Origin: a virus
Length of the DNA: 64,000 nt
IMG/VR virus record: IMGVR_UViG_3300045988_136451
Strand: one strand, 5' to 3'
Position 1 is the first letter of the stretch, and each line of letters opens with the position of its first letter. The position numbers were made by a program, and so were the translations under genes. A model generated the notes under the pieces. That model was not told the origin of the DNA. It searched no databases and saw only the letters and a list, made by a program, of their open reading frames with translations. Below, piece by piece: positions 16,286-35,723 of the stretch.

Positions 16286-17431
16286 CTATCCTCCGAACTG
16301 GTCGTACGCCGACCGGGCATATGCGATGCGCTTCTCCATCATGGGGACGGAACCGCGCGTGTACACCCGCTCGAACGCCTCCGTTGCCCATGGCAGATCG
16401 GTGATCGCCTTGAACTGGTCGAACGTCATCTTCTCCGCTATCCACGCCTGCGCGCCGTTCGGATACGTGTAAACTCCGTTGCCGGTGAAAGCGTCGAACT
16501 GGGCGGGTGCCTCGCTGACGAAGAACAAGAGCTGCGCCTGTATGTCCGTCCATTCGGTGCCGCGCTCCGACGCGAAGGCGCACAGGTCGCTGAACCGGCC
16601 AGAACCGGCCTCCCACTGAAGCAGCCCGCGTCCGGGGCCTCCGCCTCCTTGGCACGCCGCCGGGTCTACGCCGCTCTCCTGCTGCATGTTCCCGATCACG
16701 CCAGCCGCCGCCTGCTTGCTGAAGCCTTGGCTCATGCAGAAGTTCCACACCACCTCCGCGTTGCTGTTGCCGCTGAAGTCGGCAGCGCCGCCGGACGACG
16801 AGCCTCCGCTTGCGCCGCCTATGGTCGGCCCCGACGTTTGGAGCATCGCGTAAATCTGCGCCACCATGTCCGCGCCTTGGGTGTCCGATAGCTTCGCTTG
16901 GTACATGGATGTCGCCCACTCGATCACGTCGCTCGGTATCTGGCCCACGCTGATCTTCGACGCGGGCCAGTCCGCGACCGCTTGGAGCACCTTGACCCCG
17001 CTCTTCCAATAGCCGCCGTCCTGCTCCGCATCGTCCTGTCCACGGTAGACGAGCCAGAAGCTCTCCTCCAAGCCCGCGTCCCAGTAGAGCTTCTGCAAGC
17101 GGTACAGGACATCGCGCCCCCTTATCTCAACCTCGTCGGTGTTGAGGTTGTAGTAAGGGGCCTTCGTGACGTAGCCCGCGAGGACTTGGTAGCGGTCGGC
17201 CTTGGAGAGGTATATGGCTATCTTGTCCATGGGCATGAGAAGCCCGGTGTACTTCTTCCCCTCGTTCTTCAGATGCAGGATGAAGTCGCTCGAATCGTCC
17301 GTCTTCAGGTTGACGGTGAACCGCGTGATGTCGTCCGAGAGGTCGTACGCGGTCGTCCTCCCGTCGCGCGTCAGCGACACGTTGGCCTCGACCATGGGGG
17401 TGTATGTAAGGATAGCCGTCATGGCTGACAT
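16286..17431 (-). CDS. Tail-associated lysin paralog 3: shared N-terminal module plus phage tail lysozyme-like domain
   Basis: N-terminus MSAMTAILTYTPMV is paralogous to 22452..23552 and 21364..22455. After a Gly/Ser linker comes AAGVIGNMQQESGVDP...GRGLLQWE, the G-N-x3-ESG lysozyme-like signature. Confidence 0.5.
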   Translation of the reverse strand: MSAMTAILTYTPMVEANVSLTRDGRTTAYDLSDDITRFTVNLKTDDSSDFILHLKNEGKKYTGLLMPMDKIAIYLSKADRYQVLAGYVTKAPYYNLNTDEVEIRGRDVLYRLQKLYWDAGLEESFWLVYRGQDDAEQDGGYWKSGVKVLQAVADWPASKISVGQIPSDVIEWATSMYQAKLSDTQGADMVAQIYAMLQTSGPTIGGASGGSSSGGAADFSGNSNAEVVWNFCMSQGFSKQAAAGVIGNMQQESGVDPAACQGGGGPGRGLLQWEAGSGRFSDLCAFASERGTEWTDIQAQLLFFVSEAPAQFDAFTGNGVYTYPNGAQAWIAEKMTFDQFKAITDLPWATEAFERVYTRGSVPMMEKRIAYARSAYDQFGG

Positions 17432-17472
17432 TCTACCATTCGCGGCGCTCCCCCTCCATGCAGCTCGGCACC

Positions 17473-17488
17473 TCGATTATTTTATCGA
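17473..17488. repeat. Copy of TCGATTATTTTATCGA (overlaps the stop of the C39 peptidase gene; about 45 bp upstream of the lysin-paralog-3 start)
   Basis: Identical 16-mer, read in a different frame from the other coding copies. Confidence 0.5.
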
Positions 17489-18184
17489 GCGGAGACTGTA
17501 GAAGTAGAGCCACTGCGTGGCGTTAAGCTCCTCATCGGAATAAGGGCGCTGCGAGTTGTCGCCGCTCTTGGGGTCGCGGACGCGAACGTCGCCGTCGAAG
17601 CTCTGCCACAGCAGCACGACGTGGCCGCCGTAGCAGTTGCCCTGCCCGCCGAGCTGCCCGGTCATACCTGCGAACACCACCGCGCCGTCCGCGCACTCCG
17701 CCAGCGCCTCGTCGAGCGTCCAGTAGATTTCGGAGCCGTCGAGGCCGTAAGCCTCCTCCGCGTACGCGCAGAACTTGCCGGGGTCGTTGACCCCATCGGT
17801 CAGGCACGTGTCGCCAACGACCGCCGCGAGGTCGCGCGGGTAGGTGATCTGGTTCGTAAGGTACTCTATCGCCATGGCGGCGCACACGAGGCCGCACCCG
17901 GCCTGCGAGATCGACGAGCCTGCGTACTCGATTCCTCCCCACTGCGGGTCGTCCTGAAGGTACAGCGGCATGTTGTAGCCCGTCGGTATGGCCCTCTGGG
18001 CCTCTGTGGCGGGCGCTGGGAGGTCGTTAGCGTCGAAGTCGAGATAGGGTTCATCTTCGAGCCAAACGGGGGTTCTGGGAGGCTCTGCGTCCGTCTGTGG
18101 CACATCGGAGAAAACCGAATAGCCGATGATCGCCGCGAACAGCGCGGCGACCGCCAGACATTTTATGTAGCCGTTTCGTCTCAT
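17477..18184 (-). CDS. Membrane-anchored C39-like cysteine peptidase (candidate endolysin / cell-wall peptidase)
   Basis: N-terminal hydrophobic segment CLAVAALFAAIIGY. QDDPQWGG...SISQAGCGLVCAAMAIEYL (C39_2-like Cys motif) and downstream GGHVVLL His. Confidence 0.5.
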   Translation of the reverse strand: MRRNGYIKCLAVAALFAAIIGYSVFSDVPQTDAEPPRTPVWLEDEPYLDFDANDLPAPATEAQRAIPTGYNMPLYLQDDPQWGGIEYAGSSISQAGCGLVCAAMAIEYLTNQITYPRDLAAVVGDTCLTDGVNDPGKFCAYAEEAYGLDGSEIYWTLDEALAECADGAVVFAGMTGQLGGQGNCYGGHVVLLWQSFDGDVRVRDPKSGDNSQRPYSDEELNATQWLYFYSLRSIK

Positions 18185-18217
18185 GGCCGATGATTATACC
18201 CCAGCGGGAGCCAAGCG

Positions 18218-18637
18218 TCACCCGGTTCGCTCCCACAGCGGCACCGCCACCGACAACGGCATGTTGTTGTGAGGCCGGTTCTGCGCCATGGGCACGTCGT
18301 CCCTGTGGTTCTCCTCGTCGTTGATGAAGCCCCACCCGGAGGTACCGGTGCCTTGGAAGAACTCGACCCCCGACATGCTCGAACCAGAGGCTAGGTTGCA
18401 CAGGAGCGCGTGCGCATGCCACGGAAGCTCCGCAGCGGTGAGCGCGTGCGCGTTCTCCCCGTACCTTCCGCCCGTCCGGTACGTGCCGCCAGCCGCCACG
18501 AGGTACACGCCCTCGTCGTGGCGCTCCCACGTGGTGCCGGGCCACTCCGCGTTCGGGTCGCCCTTGCAGAACACGAACTCGCCGACGGCGTGCGGGCAGT
18601 AAACGGAGCGCTTCGGCCCGAAGAGGATGCTAGTCAC
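18218..18637 (-). CDS. Tail collar-domain paralog 1, 139 aa
   Basis: YCPHAVGE...WPGTTW...HALTAAELPWHAH...RPHNNMPLSVAVPLWERTG. GTG start with RBS gaaggagg. Confidence 0.5.
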   Translation of the reverse strand: MTSILFGPKRSVYCPHAVGEFVFCKGDPNAEWPGTTWERHDEGVYLVAAGGTYRTGGRYGENAHALTAAELPWHAHALLCNLASGSSMSGVEFFQGTGTSGWGFINDEENHRDDVPMAQNRPHNNMPLSVAVPLWERTG

Positions 18638-18649
18638 GATGCGCCTCCT

Positions 18650-19108
18650 TCAGAGCGAGAAGCCCCCCCCCGACGTGCACTTCCACACGTAGGCTGCGAT
18701 GTACGGCGGAACGTTGTTGTGAGGCTTGTCGCCGCCCGTGTAGTAAATCAGGTTCTGCACCCAGTTCGACCACGCCCCCTCCGTGTAGGCCACGGTGCCG
18801 TCGTCCACCCTGTAGTCCCCGGAAGCGCTCATGTTGAACTTCTTCCCGTTCGGATTGTCGGGGGAGTGCGTGTGCCGGGGCATCTCATCGACCGTGAGGA
18901 CGTGCGCGGCCTCGCCGCCCGTGCTGCCGACTGCGTACGCTCCGGAGGCCGCGCCCGCGCACACGAACGTCCCGGCGGCCAAAAGCTCCCACTTCGTCCC
19001 CGGCCATCTTGCTGACGGGTCGGTGTCCGACAGCGTGAAGTACAGGTCTCCCGCGTCGTACGGGCACAAGACCGATTTACCGCCGCCGCTCTGAACCTTG
19101 ACCGTCAT
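18650..19108 (-). CDS. Tail collar-domain paralog 2 (about 152 aa from MTVKVQ), variant C-terminus
   Basis: LCPYDAGD...WPGTKW...HVLTVDEMPRHTH...KPHNNVPPYIAAYVWKCTSGGGFSL. A G9 homopolymer encodes the last residues. Confidence 0.45.
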   Translation of the reverse strand: MTVKVQSGGGKSVLCPYDAGDLYFTLSDTDPSARWPGTKWELLAAGTFVCAGAASGAYAVGSTGGEAAHVLTVDEMPRHTHSPDNPNGKKFNMSASGDYRVDDGTVAYTEGAWSNWVQNLIYYTGGDKPHNNVPPYIAAYVWKCTSGGGFSL

Positions 19109-19129
19109 AGCGGCATCGCCCCGCACAGA

Positions 19130-19531
19130 TCACGCGGTGCGCCTCCACAGCGGGACGCATACGGAGTACGGCATGTTGTTGTGGGGCTGGCCTCCGCCCG
19201 TGTGGACGGAACTGCTGTCAATCCAGTTGTTGCCAGAAACAGCGGCGTACCTCCCCGTGTTGCCGCCCTTCGACAGCTCGACGTTCCAGTTGTTGCCGCC
19301 GTCGCCGGTGTGGCTGTGGCTCGGAATCTCCTCGATGGTGAGGATGTGCGAGTTCTCCCCACGGTTCGTGAGCGTCTTGAAGTTGTCGCCGGAAGAGACG
19401 AGGTAGGTTGCCTCCTCGTATCTGGCCCATGTGGTGCCGGGCCACTCGCCGTTGGGGTCGAACTCGCAGTGCAGCCACGTTCCAACAGGATGCGGGCAGT
19501 AGTAGCCCTTCCCCTTGACGTTAAGCCGCAT
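19130..19531 (-). CDS. Tail collar-domain paralog 3, 133 aa
   Basis: YCPHPVGT...WPGTTW...HILTIEEIPSHSH...QPHNNMPYSVCVPLWRRTA. Confidence 0.5.
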   Translation of the reverse strand: MRLNVKGKGYYCPHPVGTWLHCEFDPNGEWPGTTWARYEEATYLVSSGDNFKTLTNRGENSHILTIEEIPSHSHTGDGGNNWNVELSKGGNTGRYAAVSGNNWIDSSSVHTGGGQPHNNMPYSVCVPLWRRTA

Positions 19532-19549
19532 GGCGCATCACGGAGGCGG

Positions 19550-19990
19550 CTATGCCCCCCCCCTGATCGTGCGCAGGTTTATCTTCACGGGCCAATTAGA
19601 CCCGTTGCAGGTTCCGTCGACATCGGAGAACGTCACCTTCGTCCCGGATATGGCGGCCCTCGCGCGCCAAAGGCACGAGTTGCCCCCAATCGCGGTTCCG
19701 AAATGGAGGTCTACCGTCTTGCCGTTCGGTGAGTACACGCGGAAGGTCGGGAGCCAAACGCCGTCTTCGTACATGAACTCGAAGTCGAGCCACTGGTAGC
19801 TCGCGGCGCTCGCGCTCAACGCGTACACGTTGCCGTTGCTCAAAAGATGGCTGCCGCTCCACAAGGTCGCTACGCCCTGCTTCGAGTACGGGATGGTCGG
19901 TATCTTCGCGAGCGTGAGCGTCGGTATCTGCGCGATGTTGAGCACGGGCGTTTGAACGCCGGACGAGTTACGGTACTTCAGGTACATCTC
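19550..19990 (-). CDS. Small unrelated structural protein inserted in the collar array (about 146 aa from MYLKYRNSS)
   Basis: ORF without the collar motifs. A G9 tract encodes its last codons (RTIRGGA). Confidence 0.3.
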   Translation of the reverse strand, partial: EMYLKYRNSSGVQTPVLNIAQIPTLTLAKIPTIPYSKQGVATLWSGSHLLSNGNVYALSASAASYQWLDFEFMYEDGVWLPTFRVYSPNGKTVDLHFGTAIGGNSCLWRARAAISGTKVTFSDVDGTCNGSNWPVKINLRTIRGGA

Positions 19991-20007
19991 ATGCCTCCTC
20001 TCGGAGG

Positions 20008-20445
20008 CTACGCGGTGCGCCTCCACATATCGACGGAAAGGTACGGGGGCCTGTTCTCATGCGGCTTGTTCCTTCCGGGGAGCCGAACGTACGTATCTTC
20101 CCACTTGACCTTACCGTATTCGCTCGCAATGCCCCAAGCGTCTGCTCCGCCGCTATTGTCGCGCTGCTTCGATTGCAGATTGATTTGCGGCAAAGCGTCT
20201 GCCGACAACGTGACGGAGGCAGCGCCTCCGGTCTTGCCGACGGCGTAATCGCCGGTCGTCGCGCCTCCGCTCGACACGAGGAAGGTGCCCGCAGCGATGC
20301 GCGTCCAAGTCGTCCCCGGCCAGAGAGCGGACGGCGTGACGTTGGATGCGCTGATGTAAACCCCTCCCACCGGGAACGGGCAGAACTGCTGAACGGATGC
20401 TCCGTTGCGCCATTTGAGGACGGACAGGTTAGCCATGCAGACCAC
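20008..20445 (-). CDS. Tail collar-domain paralog 4, 145 aa
   Basis: FCPFPVGG...WPGTTW...RNKPHENRPPYLSVDMWRRTA. Confidence 0.45.
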   Translation of the reverse strand: MVCMANLSVLKWRNGASVQQFCPFPVGGVYISASNVTPSALWPGTTWTRIAAGTFLVSSGGATTGDYAVGKTGGAASVTLSADALPQINLQSKQRDNSGGADAWGIASEYGKVKWEDTYVRLPGRNKPHENRPPYLSVDMWRRTA

Positions 20446-20457
20446 CGCCCGAAGATG

Positions 20458-20870
20458 CTACGCGGTGCGCTTCCACATGTACACGGCGAGCCAAGGCGGC
20501 ATGTTGTTGTGCGCCGCGCCGCGCCGCCGGTATTTGCGATTCCGCCGTCCTGCCACCTGCTGCTGGGCGGCGACGGAGTATGCCACTCCCAGCCCCATGT
20601 GGCGACGTTGCCGCCGTCCTCGACCGCAAGAAGCTGATGATGATGGCTCGGCATCTCGTCGATTGTGAGCACGTGCGTGTTGGAGCCGTACGTATTGTTG
20701 ACCTTGTAGGTGTCGCCCGCCGAGACGAGGTAATGGCCCTCTCCATGCCGATGCCACGTCGTGCCCGGCCAGACCGCGTTGGGGTCGTACAGGCAGAAAA
20801 GGCACGTGCCGACAGGGAACGGGCAGTACTCCTCGAACGACGCGCCTTGGCGGAACTTGATCTTAGCCAC
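20458..20870 (-). pseudogene. Tail collar-domain paralog 5, frame-disrupted at a (GGCGC)3 pentanucleotide repeat (plus-strand GCGCC x3 at 20511..20525)
   Basis: N-terminal part (MAKIKF...YCPFPVGT...WPGTTW...HVLTIDEMPSHHH) is in the frame that starts at 20870. The conserved C-terminus GAAHNNMPPWLAVYMWKRTA is in the -1 frame ending at 20458. Removing one 5-nt unit gives ...IANTGGAAHNNMPP... in frame. Confidence 0.55.
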
Positions 20871-20885
20871 GGGAAGCCTCCCGCG

Positions 20886-21308
20886 CTACGCCGTCCTCTT
20901 CCAGACGTTGACGGAGATATGCAGGGGGTAGTAATCTGCCCCCCCTCCCGTCGCTCTACAGGCATCCATGTCCCAGTTGTACTTTTTATCTTGGGCGATC
21001 CATGGCGGGTAAGAGCCTCTAAGCGTTGTCGTACCAGCCTCGCTGTTGTAGCCGTAATACTCGTGAGTATGCGACGGCATCTGCGCGATGCCTATCTTCT
21101 TCGAGCCTCCGGTTGAACCCGCTGCGGCATAACCGGCCGTTCCGGCGCAAGCCAGTACGCCGCCCGTCAGCTTCGCCCACGAACCGCCCAAGACGGTGGC
21201 GGGGTTCTCCGAGCCGACGGTGAGGTAGAGGCTGTTCACCGGGTACACGAGGTCGAGCATCGTCTTGCCGATGCCGCCCTCCAGATGGAACCCGCTCAAT
21301 CTTGCCAT
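20886..21308 (-). CDS. Tail collar-domain paralog 6 (about 140 aa from MARLSGF)
   Basis: RBS aggagg. ...KIGIAQMPSHTHEYY...ADYYPLHISVNVWKRTA. Confidence 0.45.
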   Translation of the reverse strand: MARLSGFHLEGGIGKTMLDLVYPVNSLYLTVGSENPATVLGGSWAKLTGGVLACAGTAGYAAAGSTGGSKKIGIAQMPSHTHEYYGYNSEAGTTTLRGSYPPWIAQDKKYNWDMDACRATGGGADYYPLHISVNVWKRTA

Positions 21309-21363
21309 TGCCGCCTCCTGTGGTGTCGAATGCTGAAATGATAGCACAGGGCCGCGCGCTCGG

Positions 21364-22455
21364 CTACGCCGCCTTCTCGTAGCGGAAGAAGTGCGTCCAG
21401 CTGCCGGAGATTTTCACCACGGATATCTCGTCGCCCGTCTGGTCTCCGCCCTGCCCGTATATGCCGCCGTCCTCGGCGCTGTGAGCGCCCGCCGTCTCGC
21501 CGTTGCCGATATACCATTCCGTGTGAGCGGCGCGCCACATGATGTCGCCGCGCTTCAGCGAGCCGACGTTGCCGTCGTACGGGTACATCTTCCATCCGAT
21601 GGGCGGAAGAACCTCCTGCATGCGCGTCGTGTTGAACGTCCAGCTTCCAAGCTCCTCGCGCGTCCATCCACCGGCGAGGAGCGAGTAGAAGACCAATGAC
21701 GAGCAGTCGTAGTCGGGGTTCCCGTCGCGGTTCCCCTGACTGTACCCGTGGCTGTCGTCGTTGCATATCTGTATGGCCCACTGCACGGCCTTCTCGACCG
21801 CCTCGTACGAGGCGGTTCCCCCTCCGGCTGACGACGAGCCGCCGGAGCCTATGGCGGGGCCTGACGTTTGCAGCATCTTGTAAATCTGGTTCACCATGTC
21901 CGCGCCTTGGGTGTCGGCCAGCTTGACGCGGTACATCGACGTTGCGAACTCGATCACGTCGTCGGGCAGCTGCCCTATGGCGATCTTCGACGCGTCCCAG
22001 TTGGCGACGTTGGTGAGCACGTTCGCCCCCACGCGCCAGTACTCATCGTGCGTCTTCCACGTCGAGCTGTTCGTGAACAGGAGCTGCTGCGATTCGTACA
22101 GCCCCGCGTCCCAGTAGAGCGCTTGGAGGCGGTAGAGCGCGCACTTCCCGGACATCTCGAAGTCGGCGTTGTAAAGCCGCCAGAAGTCGCACTTGGTGAT
22201 GTACCCGGCGAAGACCGGGTACTCGTCGCCCTTGGACAGGCGTATGACGATTCTGTCCATGGGGGTGAACGCCCCGTTGTACTTCCCTCCCTTGTTCTGA
22301 AGGGACAGGGAGAACGTGGAGCAGCTATCGACGTTCAGGTTTATCTTGAAGCCGGTGATGTCGTCGGTGAGGTCGTACGCGCGCACGGAGCCGTCCGGCT
22401 GGCGCACCGCCACCTCGGCCTTGACCATCGGCGTGTAGGCGAGTATGGCCGTCAT
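21364..22455 (-). CDS. Tail-associated lysin paralog 2: shared N-terminal module plus CHAP/NlpC-P60-like cysteine peptidase domain
   Basis: MTAILAYTPMVKAEV... N-terminal module. C-terminus DCSSLVFYSL (Cys) and HTEWYIGNGETAGAHS (His). Start overlaps the stop of 22452..23552. The track ORF 21364..22731 includes upstream read-through. Confidence 0.5.
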   Translation of the reverse strand: MTAILAYTPMVKAEVAVRQPDGSVRAYDLTDDITGFKINLNVDSCSTFSLSLQNKGGKYNGAFTPMDRIVIRLSKGDEYPVFAGYITKCDFWRLYNADFEMSGKCALYRLQALYWDAGLYESQQLLFTNSSTWKTHDEYWRVGANVLTNVANWDASKIAIGQLPDDVIEFATSMYRVKLADTQGADMVNQIYKMLQTSGPAIGSGGSSSAGGGTASYEAVEKAVQWAIQICNDDSHGYSQGNRDGNPDYDCSSLVFYSLLAGGWTREELGSWTFNTTRMQEVLPPIGWKMYPYDGNVGSLKRGDIMWRAAHTEWYIGNGETAGAHSAEDGGIYGQGGDQTGDEISVVKISGSWTHFFRYEKAA

Positions 22456-23552
22456 GGCAGAAGCCCCGGCCTGCACGGATAGGCCTCGTCGAGTATAACG
22501 CCGCCGTTCCAGCCCCACCCGGTGCCCTGCGGCACGTAGGTGTTGCCGGAGTTCACCCATTCCGTCAGCGACCACTCGTGCACGTACCCTATGTTGTCGA
22601 GAACCACGCCGTTGCCGACGTAGATTCCCACATGGCCGTACACGCATCCGGGGTTGCCGGAGTTGTCCCAGCCGTAGCCGAACACGGCTGCTCCGACCTT
22701 GACCTTGCTCCAATCCGTCGATGCGCCCCACGCCCGCGCCGCCTCGCGCGCCGAAGACTTGCGGGGTATCTTGATTCCGGCAGCGTCGAACACGTCGTCA
22801 ACCCACTTCTGGCAGAAGCCGCCCTGCGTGGTTATGCCGTACCTCTCGGAGTTCTTCGCGACCTCGACGATCTTCTTCTGCGCCTCGGTCACGTCGCCGT
22901 CGAACACGTCCCCGCCGAGGCCCCCGATGTCCCCCGTCGCCTCCGTGAAGGTAGGCCCCGACACCTGCAACATCGAGTAGATTTGATTCACCATGTCGGC
23001 TCCCTGCGTGTCGGCCAGCCTCGCATCGTACATCGACAGCGCCCACTCGATGACCTCGGTCGGTATCTGGCCCACGCTGATGCGCTCGGCGGGCCAACCG
23101 GCGACGCTCATCAGGACGTTGGCTGCGGCGCGCCAGTAGCCGCCGTCCTGATCGGAGCTTTCGGCGCTCTGGAAAGTGACAAGCTCGCGAGACGCGAGAA
23201 GGCCGCTGTCCCAGTAAAGGGCCTGCAAGCGCCATAGAACGTCCTTGCCCGTTATGGTGACGGGCTGCGAGTTCAGCATGAACATGGGAACCTTCGTGAC
23301 GTAGCCCGCTAGGACTTGGTAGCGGTTCGCCTTGGAGAGGTATATGGCTATCGCGTCCATGGGCTTGAACGCCCCGTCGTACTTGCCGCCGACGTTCTGA
23401 AGCGTGAGCGAGAACGTGGAGCAGCCGTCGGTGTTCAGCGTCACGGAGAAGTCGGTGATGTCGTCGGTGAGGTCGTAGTACTTGTAGCCGTTCGCCGTCT
23501 GCGCCCTCACCTGCGCGCTCACCATCGGCGTGTAGGCGAGTATGGCCGTCAT
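22452..23552 (-). CDS. Tail-associated lysin paralog 1: shared N-terminal module plus CHAP/NlpC-P60-like domain
   Basis: MTAILAYTPMVSAQV... N-terminal module. C-terminus GFCQKWVDDVF (Cys) ... YGHVGIYVGNG (His). Confidence 0.5.
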   Translation of the reverse strand: MTAILAYTPMVSAQVRAQTANGYKYYDLTDDITDFSVTLNTDGCSTFSLTLQNVGGKYDGAFKPMDAIAIYLSKANRYQVLAGYVTKVPMFMLNSQPVTITGKDVLWRLQALYWDSGLLASRELVTFQSAESSDQDGGYWRAAANVLMSVAGWPAERISVGQIPTEVIEWALSMYDARLADTQGADMVNQIYSMLQVSGPTFTEATGDIGGLGGDVFDGDVTEAQKKIVEVAKNSERYGITTQGGFCQKWVDDVFDAAGIKIPRKSSAREAARAWGASTDWSKVKVGAAVFGYGWDNSGNPGCVYGHVGIYVGNGVVLDNIGYVHEWSLTEWVNSGNTYVPQGTGWGWNGGVILDEAYPCRPGLLP

Positions 23553-34644: not shown

Positions 34645-34726
34645 GCCCTTGACAGGCCGTGCCCCCCCCCATAACGGTTCCTTCGGGCGGCCAGATCAAC
34701 ATAGTCAGGCTCCCGACACCGGCGTA

Positions 34727-34758
34727 AAAAAAAGAACCCCTCTCGCGAGGGGTTCTTC
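34727..34758 (-). terminator. Strong rho-independent terminator after the major capsid gene
   Basis: Hairpin gaacccctctcgcgaggggttc, followed on the minus strand by T8. Confidence 0.6.
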
Positions 34759-34769
34759 TCTTGCTGCGG

Positions 34770-35723
34770 TTAAGCTACATTCAAGTCCATGCGGACGACA
34801 CCGTAGGAGTTGGCGATGATCTCGTTGATGAGTTCGCTGTACACCCAGCCGATGGTGAAGTTCTCGGCCTTGGGGTTGTCCACGCCGTCGAGCTGCTTCA
34901 GAATCGGCATCCAGCCAAGATACTCCGGCTCCGGAACGAGGTAAATCTTGTTCATCGGGCAGATGATCGAGGTCATGATGGAGAAGCGGCCCATCTTGGT
35001 GATCGGCTTGCCGTCCATCACGTCGTCGAGGAACTTAACGCCCGTGGTGTCGAGCTTCCACTTGTACAGGTCGTTCGCCGTCGCCGGGTTCATGATGACG
35101 CGGTTGGACTGCAAGCGGTTCTGGATGGCGATCTTCTCGGCATCGTAGAACGCGCCGGGGTTGATCTCGCCGGTGACCGTGGTCACATGCGAGGTGAGGC
35201 CCGCCCAGTCCGGGTTTTCGGAGGTGATCTTGGACACGGCAGCGTCGAGCGAGGAGAACAGGTAGCCGTCCTCCTGCTCCATGATGCGCTGCTCGGCCTC
35301 GCCCTTGGCGTAGTCCACCATGTTGATGGCGAGCTTGTAGATGTCCTCCTCGGCGATCTGGGGGAACGCCGCGATGCGGATGACCTCGTAGCGTACGCGG
35401 TTGCCCTCGTACTGCGCGATCTTCACTTCGTTGTCGTGCGGTTGCAGCTTGTAGGCCGCGCCGAACTCGGTGGTGATGTCGTAGAACAGGCCAGCGCCCT
35501 GCGGCAGCGGGTCTTCCATCAGAACGGAGCGCACGATGCCCTCGTAGCGGAGACGCATGATGATCGGGCCTACCACGCCCTGCGCGACCTTGGTGGACGC
35601 GAGACGCATGTCGTGGCGGTTGTCCGTCAGAATCTTGTTGAGCGCCGCCTGACGCTTCGCGGGGGACGACGGTTTCGCACCCATCTCCGCGACGATCTCG
35701 GCGGAAGTCTTAGGCATTGCCAT
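34770..35723 (-). CDS. Major capsid protein (HK97-fold-like)
   Basis: 317 aa. Follows the scaffold and decoration-like genes and precedes a strong terminator. Composition typical of major capsid proteins. Confidence 0.5.
   Translation of the reverse strand: MAMPKTSAEIVAEMGAKPSSPAKRQAALNKILTDNRHDMRLASTKVAQGVVGPIIMRLRYEGIVRSVLMEDPLPQGAGLFYDITTEFGAAYKLQPHDNEVKIAQYEGNRVRYEVIRIAAFPQIAEEDIYKLAINMVDYAKGEAEQRIMEQEDGYLFSSLDAAVSKITSENPDWAGLTSHVTTVTGEINPGAFYDAEKIAIQNRLQSNRVIMNPATANDLYKWKLDTTGVKFLDDVMDGKPITKMGRFSIMTSIICPMNKIYLVPEPEYLGWMPILKQLDGVDNPKAENFTIGWVYSELINEIIANSYGVVRMDLNVA

Follow-up and report, generated by a model that had tools for sequence, protein, structure and literature searches.

A copy-number-variable array of gp10-type tail genes with length-polymorphic poly-G tracts in a gut phage related to Eggerthella phage LE2-3

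Introduction

Campylobacter phase-varies its capsule. Likewise, the Fletchervirus phages of Campylobacter reportedly carry hypermutable poly-G tracts in tail and receptor-binding genes that shift reading frames and thereby generate subpopulations, as Sorensen et al. are said to have described in 2021 (Cell Rep 35:109214). The poly-G tracts of Campylobacter phages (Sorensen 2021) are cited in PMC12823448 and PMC10877375. Here, we describe poly-G tracts in a tandem array of six small tail-gene units that is encoded in a 64,000-nucleotide (64-kb) stretch of viral DNA, the IMG/VR record IMGVR_UViG_3300045988_136451 (hereafter called the window), which is related to Eggerthella phage LE2-3. Comparison with about 30 related genomes makes it fairly probable that the array is a repertoire of minimal receptor-binding heads that is under poly-G phase variation in a manner similar to that of the Campylobacter phages. 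Both systems have long poly-G runs in tail or, here putatively, receptor-binding genes, and the frame shifts with the length of the run, as read here from genome sequences. In contrast to Fletchervirus, the host belongs to the Actinomycetota (Coriobacteriia), the genome is GC-rich, the protein family is a different one, and the tracts are found in a tandem array of stand-alone head domains, at the 3' ends of genes and, in LE2-3, in promoter-like spacers. A literature search found no paper describing LE2-3 or the tracts reported here.

Other phages reach alternative receptor-binding ends by different routes. Inversion of the G segment of Mu and of the C segment of P1 and the diversity-generating retroelement of Bordetella phage allow one genome to give rise to such alternatives. 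The same end is proposed here, but the alternatives would be separate genes and not alternative C-termini of one fibre, and an invertase or a reverse transcriptase, neither of which was searched for, would not be needed. The receptor-binding proteins of lactococcal siphophages, such as BppL of TP901-1 (163 aa), consist of an N-terminal docking segment and a trimeric head and are present in many copies per baseplate. The array proteins resemble them in being complete proteins of about 130-165 residues with a short N-terminal segment and a head; however, the head fold is unrelated, and the lactococcal protein is the product of a single gene, with neither an array nor repeat tracts.

In the contingency loci of bacteria (Neisseria, Haemophilus, Campylobacter), as in the locus described here, repeats lie in open reading frames (ORFs) or promoter spacers and expression depends on the frame, repeat length is polymorphic between close relatives, and the repeats cluster in surface-interaction genes. 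A repeat length that differs recurrently between near-identical genomes, by which such loci are recognized, is found here as well. Contingency loci were also described in a preprint for the phages T2 and T4, where each genome has far more than a hundred short repeats, spread over genes of all functional categories (PMC12633550). Unlike these, the tracts of LE2-3 are few (16 in 112 kb), long (G8-G10) and bimodal in length, and over half of them are located in two clusters of small tail-type genes.

Results

Organization of the array

The array extends from position 21347 down to 18218 on the minus strand and comprises six units of one family and an unrelated small gene, Gx. Coordinates are based on starts supported by ribosome-binding sites; bit scores refer to the Pfam family PF21939.

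20886-21308, minus strand: G6, first paralogue, 140 aa, intact and in frame; 50.0 bits
20458-20870, minus strand: G5, frameshifted paralogue and probable pseudogene, 413 nt, parts in two frames
20008-20436, minus strand: G4, paralogue of 142 aa, without a tract and without the HxH histidines; 55.3 bits
19550-19987, minus strand: Gx, unrelated small gene, 145 aa
19130-19531, minus strand: G3, paralogue of 133 aa, intact, with a PSHSH motif; 25.2 bits
18650-19108, minus strand: G2, paralogue of 152 aa, intact; 46.5 bits
18218-18637, minus strand: G1, last paralogue, 139 aa, GTG start, intact in the window; 26.7 bits

This layout agrees with a preliminary description of the window, made from the sequence alone, which had reported six consecutive paralogous genes with one unrelated small gene inserted, except that only five of the six units are intact genes: G5 is frameshifted. 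For G6, the ATG with an AGGAGG site upstream was taken as the start, where the ORF tool begins at the GTG at 21347; a single frame then covers profile positions 3-137. In many relatives the G6 gene is out of frame. The paralogues share 18-46% pairwise identity and the array is therefore not an assembly duplication, which bears out the divergence noted earlier; at this distance the synonymous sites are saturated, so that dN/dS between paralogues would carry no information. The motif blocks that had been described as common to all six genes are found in part of the array, but they are absent or altered in G6, G4, G1 and G2. G6 has no CPxPVG, WPGTTW or PHNNMP, and the C-terminal ends of G1 and G2 read WERTG and WKCTS. 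Promoter and terminator scans revealed nothing inside the array.

Each protein has a short N-terminal leader of about 15-25 residues that is directly followed by one head domain of the gp10-C/gp12 type. In the alignment of the paralogues, conserved blocks flank a length-variable region between the motifs P-S-H-x-H and T-G-G-G. The former is present in most paralogues and is a candidate for a metal site on the axis of a trimer.

Related genomes

The window has a GC content of about 63%, nearly all of its long ORFs are on the minus strand, and no tRNAs were found in it. Compared with LE2-3 (MW679026.1, 111,961 bp) it is 88.6% identical over the 73% covered, and the segment 16001-20513 is 99.6% identical. 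The major capsid proteins of the two are 99.7% identical; identity to those of Mycobacterium phages, for example Dandelion and Myrna, is about 38%. In the GenBank record of LE2-3, the host is listed as Eggerthella lenta DSM 2243 and one of the proteins is annotated as tail sheath. A contig from a human-gut metagenome (ERZ827508 NODE_98, 118.6 kb) has an array sequence identical to that of the window, and the exact G3 protein is recorded in 451 blocks of a public metagenome assembly collection, from which it follows that the phage is common in the human gut.

The genomes compared below (about 30) are LE2-3, one IMG/VR contig and about 28 further metagenome contigs of the same phage. The metagenome relatives were gathered through exact-protein look-ups, and related loci are given L-numbers (L004 etc.). 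IMG/VR scans with Gx and with the 235-aa protein encoded next to the array yielded one contig apiece. A more distant lineage with 58% GC was compared separately.

Protein family and copy number

The units had been assigned to the phage tail collar domain (PF07484), but none of them has a Pfam match to this family at E<=1, and the link to "collar" exists only via tblastn matches to proteins annotated as tail collar fibre. The family matched by all units is PF21939 (Gp10_C), the C-terminal domain of T4 gp10. Its gathering cutoff is 27 bits for the whole-protein score; G2, G4 and G6 are above it and G1 (26.7) and G3 (25.2) just below, and the score of G5 is split across two frames (26.0 and 16.1 bits). 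A profile of eight paralogues retrieved the structure of the T4 gp10 C-terminal domain (2fkk) from the PDB with E=4.5e-4 over the whole domain, with profile positions 15-143 aligned to chain residues 54-205. PHROG matches were to the C-terminal ends of long tail proteins. By tblastn, units including G4 matched short tail fibres of the KVP40 type (annotated "tail collar fiber protein"), the "putative antireceptor" of Lactobacillus phage Ld3 and streptococcal prophage tail proteins, in each case at the C-terminus. NCBIfam has no family for any of the array proteins or for the 235-aa neighbour.

The likeness to the C-terminal domain of T4 gp10 and the gp12 head thus extends over the whole length of the domain, and its conserved start (F/Y-P-V-G) and end (N-x-x-P-Y...W-x-R) are found in both. 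In T4 gp10 and in most of the best-matching clusters of the family, however, the domain ends a far longer protein, whereas here it makes up nearly the whole protein and is repeated six times; moreover, most array copies have the HxH motif, which gp10 does not have. The family comprises 37,188 representative clusters. Among the best 150 of these the domain mostly ends a longer protein, and stand-alone proteins of at most 160 residues are a minority.

The number of units in the relatives ranges from about 3-5 to at least 13, with eight in LE2-3, and the relatives differ strongly both in copy number and in the alleles of the loop between HxH and TGGG. By homology, the paralogues most probably serve as alternative receptor-binding heads that dock on the baseplate. 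The idea of a diversified host-recognition repertoire, raised in the preliminary description, fits the homology, the position in the baseplate module and the differences in copy number and loop alleles; as to function, it rests on homology and position. If the proteins were instead structural parts of the baseplate like the C-terminal domain of T4 gp10, or subunits of a hetero-oligomeric collar, their number would reflect architecture and not host range. This would be in line with the best match among solved structures, since gp10 is a wedge protein and not a receptor binder, with the location of the array between baseplate hub-type genes and Baseplate_J, and with the finding that G1-G4 are intact in nearly all genomes compared. 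It is hard to reconcile a fixed role, however, with a copy number of about 3 to at least 13 in otherwise near-identical phages and with genomes from which G1, G2 or Gx is absent (L017, L018, L020). The variation is concentrated in the loop region, and homologous domains end annotated short tail fibres and antireceptors. We therefore consider a structural role unlikely.

Poly-G tracts in the window

Runs of at least seven C on the plus strand, corresponding to G on the coding strand, occur only four times in the 64 kb, and three of the four are inside the 3.1-kb array. C runs of length 6 or 8 are not found on the plus strand of the window, and the distribution of run lengths is bimodal in the window and in LE2-3. 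The tracts had not been mentioned in the preliminary description. In tract lengths, the number after G counts consecutive guanines. The repeats of the array are:

20939-20949, minus strand: interrupted tract GGGAGGGGGGG, encodes the TGGG motif of G6; its uninterrupted G7 part is at 20939-20945
20511-20525, minus strand: pentanucleotide repeat GGCGC x3, the cause of the frameshift in the G5 gene
19555-19563, minus strand: tract D, nine guanines (G9) at the 3' end of Gx, within its last codons (…IRGGA*); 23 nt separate it from the downstream start of G3
18663-18671, minus strand: tract E, nine guanines (G9) at the 3' end of G2, within its last codons and shortly before the ribosome-binding site of G1

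The interrupting A in the tract of G6 keeps this gene in frame, and the C-terminal extension of G2, SGGGFSL, is encoded by tract E. The tracts exceed what is expected from composition and codon usage: outside the array, GGG accounts for 18% of the glycine codons, the chance of three consecutive GGG codons is 0.006, and none of the six Gly-Gly-Gly runs is all GGG.

A function of the poly-G runs as Shine-Dalgarno sequences within the array was considered and rejected, because each tract of the window either keeps a distance of at least 23 nt to the next start or has a canonical AGGAGG site behind it. Outside the array, G8-G10 runs are located 4-7 nt before start codons in LE2-3 (100874-100882, 105282-105290 and 109872-109879); the genes behind them are those for DNA polymerase III alpha, LE23_127 and LE23_137. 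The Gx orthologues of the distant lineage also have a start-proximal G run (L031, 6007; L032, 5986). These runs occupy the position of a ribosome-binding site, which makes a Shine-Dalgarno role plausible for some such tracts.

Length variation among relatives

Across the genomes compared the tracts range from G6 to G11, and every tract family is polymorphic (numbers of occurrences in parentheses):

Tract A, internal, in relatives: G6 (2), G8 (3), G9 (5), G10 (1)
Tract C, internal, in relatives: G8 (6), G9 (5), G10 (1)
Tract F, internal, in relatives: G8 (3), G9 (7)
Tract D, 3' end of Gx, 30 loci: G8 (13), G9 (15), G10 (2)
Tract E, 3' end of G2, 26 loci: G8 (3), G9 (20), G10 (3)

Over a total of 342 kb, the related loci contain only one homopolymer of at least six bases other than G. 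When 3.8 kb, including 2 kb of flanking genes, were aligned for 13 genomes, all insertions and deletions (indels) with a length other than a multiple of three were located at G runs within the array, and the flanks had no such indel, although 97 columns contain substitutions. When placed on a tree of the flanks, the tract states are as scattered as shuffled labels, that is, they carry no phylogenetic signal: tract D requires 7 changes, the mean for shuffled labels is 6.9 and the minimum is 2.

Random miscalls would also give no phylogenetic signal, and it has to be asked whether the true tract length is fixed and the differences are errors of sequencing or assembly. Homopolymers are error-prone, and several of the assemblies have, according to their contig names, a coverage of only about 7-13x. 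On the other hand, the tracts are found at the same places in an isolate genome and in about 30 independent assemblies made with different assemblers. Their spread is specific for the locus, with tract E at G9 in 20 of 26 cases and tract D divided into 13 G8 and 15 G9, unlike what a uniform error rate would produce, and lengths span 6 to 11. Interrupted variants and a frameshift caused by a 5-nt repeat in 11 genomes are no homopolymer miscalls either. Error as the source of the variation is thus highly improbable.

In orthologues of Gx, the C-terminal RGG at the site of tract D is retained down to an identity of 62%. In the distant lineage the same position is occupied by an array of five genes, and the G9-G11 tracts of this lineage are found only in the array, at other sites, one of them just upstream of the start of the Gx orthologue. 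Shorter runs change as well. A run of five G in G1 (at about 18371) has only four in L005 and L007, by which G1 is frameshifted, and a run of five G in Gx (at about 19687) has nine in L010 and L013, intermediate lengths not being seen; within the array, short G runs can thus turn into new tracts or disrupt genes.

In three loci (L008, L023, L040) the first paralogue is fused by a deletion to the second, directly from the internal tract of the one to the tract at the 3' end of the other (AACGCAACA-G8/9-CAACCGCAA). The poly-G runs thus also serve as junctions of recombination or deletion events that change the copy number.

Consequences for the reading frames

The internal tracts lie in the TGGG codons just before the conserved end ...HNNMPPY...W(K/R)RTA. 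For tracts A, C and F, no lengths other than G7 and G10 keep the frame; such cases are tract A in L006 and tract C in L005, both with G10. In LE2-3, the first gene (G9) and LE23_97 (G8) are out of frame. The first-gene allele of the window type, where it is uninterrupted, is in frame with G11 (L036) and out of frame with G10 (L004), and the allele AACAACACT has G10 in two of seven genomes; the frame of one and the same allele differs from genome to genome. As judged from the sequences, a change in length would switch between a full-length and a truncated or aberrant product at the internal tracts A, A', C and F of the relatives and in the G6 allele of the window. The first-gene tract is interrupted at differing positions in the window, L010, L011 and L017, in all four with the frame preserved, and these interruptions look like a repeated locking of the ON state.

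Out-of-frame states have left their mark on annotations. LE23_93 (306 aa, L001 11091-12011), annotated as a tail protein, is a read-through chimera: the first paralogue loses its frame and the ORF continues across the next gene. What looks in some relatives, for example in LE23_93, like the single fused long fibre gene that according to the preliminary description would have spoken against an array is a frameshift read-through artefact at a poly-G tract and no real fusion. In the annotation of LE2-3, LE23_97 ends in the wrong frame and the G5-type gene is missing.

Other tracts (D, E and B) are located at the ends of genes, in the last codons. At G9, tract D gives ...IRGGA*; at G10 ten residues are added, and at G8 the stop is lost and the ORF crosses G3 out of frame to end at the ATGA that starts G2. 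With tract E, a stop is reached within 6-13 codons at all three lengths (6-7 at G9), each time with a different short tail, and the position of the stop relative to the G1 start codon shifts with the length.

On a G run, re-pairing is perfect whatever the frame. If RNA polymerase or the ribosome slipped on it, genomes with an out-of-frame tract could still give some full-length protein, and the tract would tune dosage and would not be a heritable switch. That most internal tracts are one base short, with G9 where G10 is needed, would fit such slippage during expression. But the length of the tracts is not conserved, unlike that of a tuned recoding site, and the alternative frames cross the neighbouring genes out of frame and encode nothing conserved, which leaves this explanation improbable.

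The G5 gene differs from the other units. One frame covers its profile positions up to 118, whereas the C-terminal part, AHNNMPPWLAVYMWKRTA*, is read in the -1 frame; two copies of GGCGC in place of three would put the gene in frame (...NTGGAAHNNMPPW...). The three copies, and hence the frameshift, are present in 11 of 11 short-array genomes, and a further frameshift within this gene is found in L022. Rescue by programmed -1 frameshifting was considered, but inspection of the overlap revealed no slippery site of the type X XXY YYZ. With no slippery site, a fixed frameshift and the further decay in L022, a pseudogene is preferred over programmed frameshifting, and G5 is probably a pseudogene.

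A second cluster of small genes and promoter-like spacers

In the genome of LE2-3, there are 16 G/C runs of at least eight bases and none of seven. Five are in the array and four in a second cluster, LE23_36-39 (16824-18902 of LE2-3, L028), which is outside the window. It consists of four small paralogues of 146-166 aa with a common N-terminus, MAKLKYRGSGGVVELLD, and unrelated C-terminal parts. Each is preceded by TTGAC(A/T)-N7-C8/9-N2-TTACGAT, in which the homopolymer is in a promoter-like spacer. The one long run of the window outside the array (C9, plus strand, 34662-34670) has TTGACA exactly 7 nt upstream (plus strand, 34649-34680) and thus the same architecture, TTGACA-N7-C9, as the four motifs of LE2-3. 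It is G9 in the window and G10 in LE2-3, is located between the major capsid gene (34770-35723) and the next gene, and points antisense toward the terminator hairpin of the capsid gene (about 34726-34755).

Gx has no sequence match in Pfam, PHROG, NCBIfam or the PDB, and homologues were found only in related phages. Its N-terminus, MYLKYRNSSGV, is the best non-self match in the genome to the N-terminus of LE23_36-39, but this match is weak (iE 0.089) and those of the array N-termini are worse; an N-terminal docking motif shared by the array, Gx and LE23_36-39 was therefore not accepted and is a lead only. At about 19900-19935, L011 and L012 have lost 24 nt of Gx, in frame and between short direct repeats (AGATACCGAC); the same loss of eight residues is seen in the protein cluster P0029.

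Baseplate neighbourhood

The array is located in the baseplate module, with a Baseplate_J protein further on. It is bracketed by three paralogous tail proteins that share an N-terminal domain of about 210 aa (phrog_2810) and differ in the cell-wall hydrolase domain (NlpC/P60-like, Amidase_5/ELLD and Phage_lysozyme2):

22452-23552, minus strand: tail protein
21364-22455, minus strand: tail protein
16286-17422, minus strand: tail protein

After the array, a protein of 235 aa is encoded (17477-18184, minus strand) that has a hydrophobic N-terminus and a weak match to Peptidase_C39_2. The sole sigma-70-like site in 16-24 kb, GTGACG-17-TATAAT (18193-18221), is just upstream of this gene.

Discussion

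The phage would be an Eggerthella phage of about 112-119 kb with an annotated tail sheath, and the array would provide it with minimal tail-tip proteins. We propose that these diversify on two routes. On the first, duplication, divergence and recombination between paralogues would change the copy number and swap the loops between HxH and TGGG. On the second, slippage would occur at coding-strand poly-G tracts of about 8-10 bases. At the tracts in the TGGG codons this would bring the C-terminus in or out of frame and thereby turn the gene ON or OFF; at the tracts at the end of genes it would alter the tail of the protein and the place at which the ribosome stops relative to the next start codon. 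In the state represented by the window, the first gene would be fixed ON by the interrupting A and the fifth unit would be dead, with D and E at G9 giving the normal stops. The proposal presumes that slippage is frequent and reversible within the phage population, that the small proteins are part of the virion and that switching alters the host range.

Several observations weigh against a phase-variable repertoire. At the internal tracts, few consensus genomes have an in-frame length (A in 1 of 11, C in 1 of 12, F in 0 of 10), which would also fit decaying, dispensable genes. The uninterrupted tracts of the window, D and E, change only tails and stop positions, and an effect on expression is conjecture. 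LE2-3 has G8-G10 tracts outside the array, some of them by start codons; they are not specific for the array. Finally, an AlphaFold2 monomer model of G3 from a 23-sequence alignment is of low confidence (mean pLDDT 63.6, pTM 0.43), and although Foldseek ranks gp10-type baseplate proteins on top when this model is compared with the PDB, the matches are not significant (E 0.02-0.3, TM about 0.3).

The low in-frame share also favours the main rival explanation, tolerated hot spots of mutation. The replicase would let G runs beyond about six bases grow to an equilibrium near nine, and these would be kept where frameshifts are harmless, as in intergenic DNA, at the ends of genes and in redundant paralogues; the array would then consist of partly decaying duplicates, and the patterns of ON and OFF would have no adaptive role. 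The run lengths are indeed bimodal throughout the genome, and tracts are found outside tail genes, too. Moreover, a run in Gx has gone from five to nine G in two genomes with no intermediates seen, most internal tracts are out of frame, and the G5 gene is a fixed pseudogene that decays further in L022. Against hot spots that are merely tolerated stand the tract sites kept in orthologues down to 62% protein identity, the recurrence of tracts in the distant lineage and the four promoter-like spacers with a tract at equal offset. One allele is seen both in and out of frame, and the first gene has repeatedly and independently acquired interruptions that preserve its frame, which speaks for selection on the state of expression. 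On this evidence hot spots without a function are a doubtful explanation, and a repertoire of receptor-binding heads under poly-G phase variation is preferred.

E. lenta phase-varies its capsule to escape another phage (PMC13131767), and this would offer a biological rationale for switching in the phage. It is tempting to speculate further that the array, Gx and the cluster with the promoter-like spacers together form a combinatorial set of up to a dozen or more individually switchable heads that share a short N-terminal docking segment, such that a lysate would be a mixture of tip sets and would counter the phase variation of the capsule. This extended version is tentative.

Gene callers turn out-of-frame states of such tracts into spurious "tail proteins" of 290-306 aa or skip the genes, as is seen in the LE2-3 record. 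Since the GenBank record names both the isolate (LE2-3) and the host strain (E. lenta DSM 2243), the proposal is open to direct testing. If it is true, this would be a second, phylogenetically remote case of repeat-driven phase variation of host-recognition genes in phages and the first such case in a phage of gut Actinomycetota, here joined to an array of variable copy number. It would be relevant to the phage-based editing of E. lenta, since lysates would be heterogeneous and the host range unstable, and it would help to account for the persistence of a lytic phage on a host with a phase-variable capsule.

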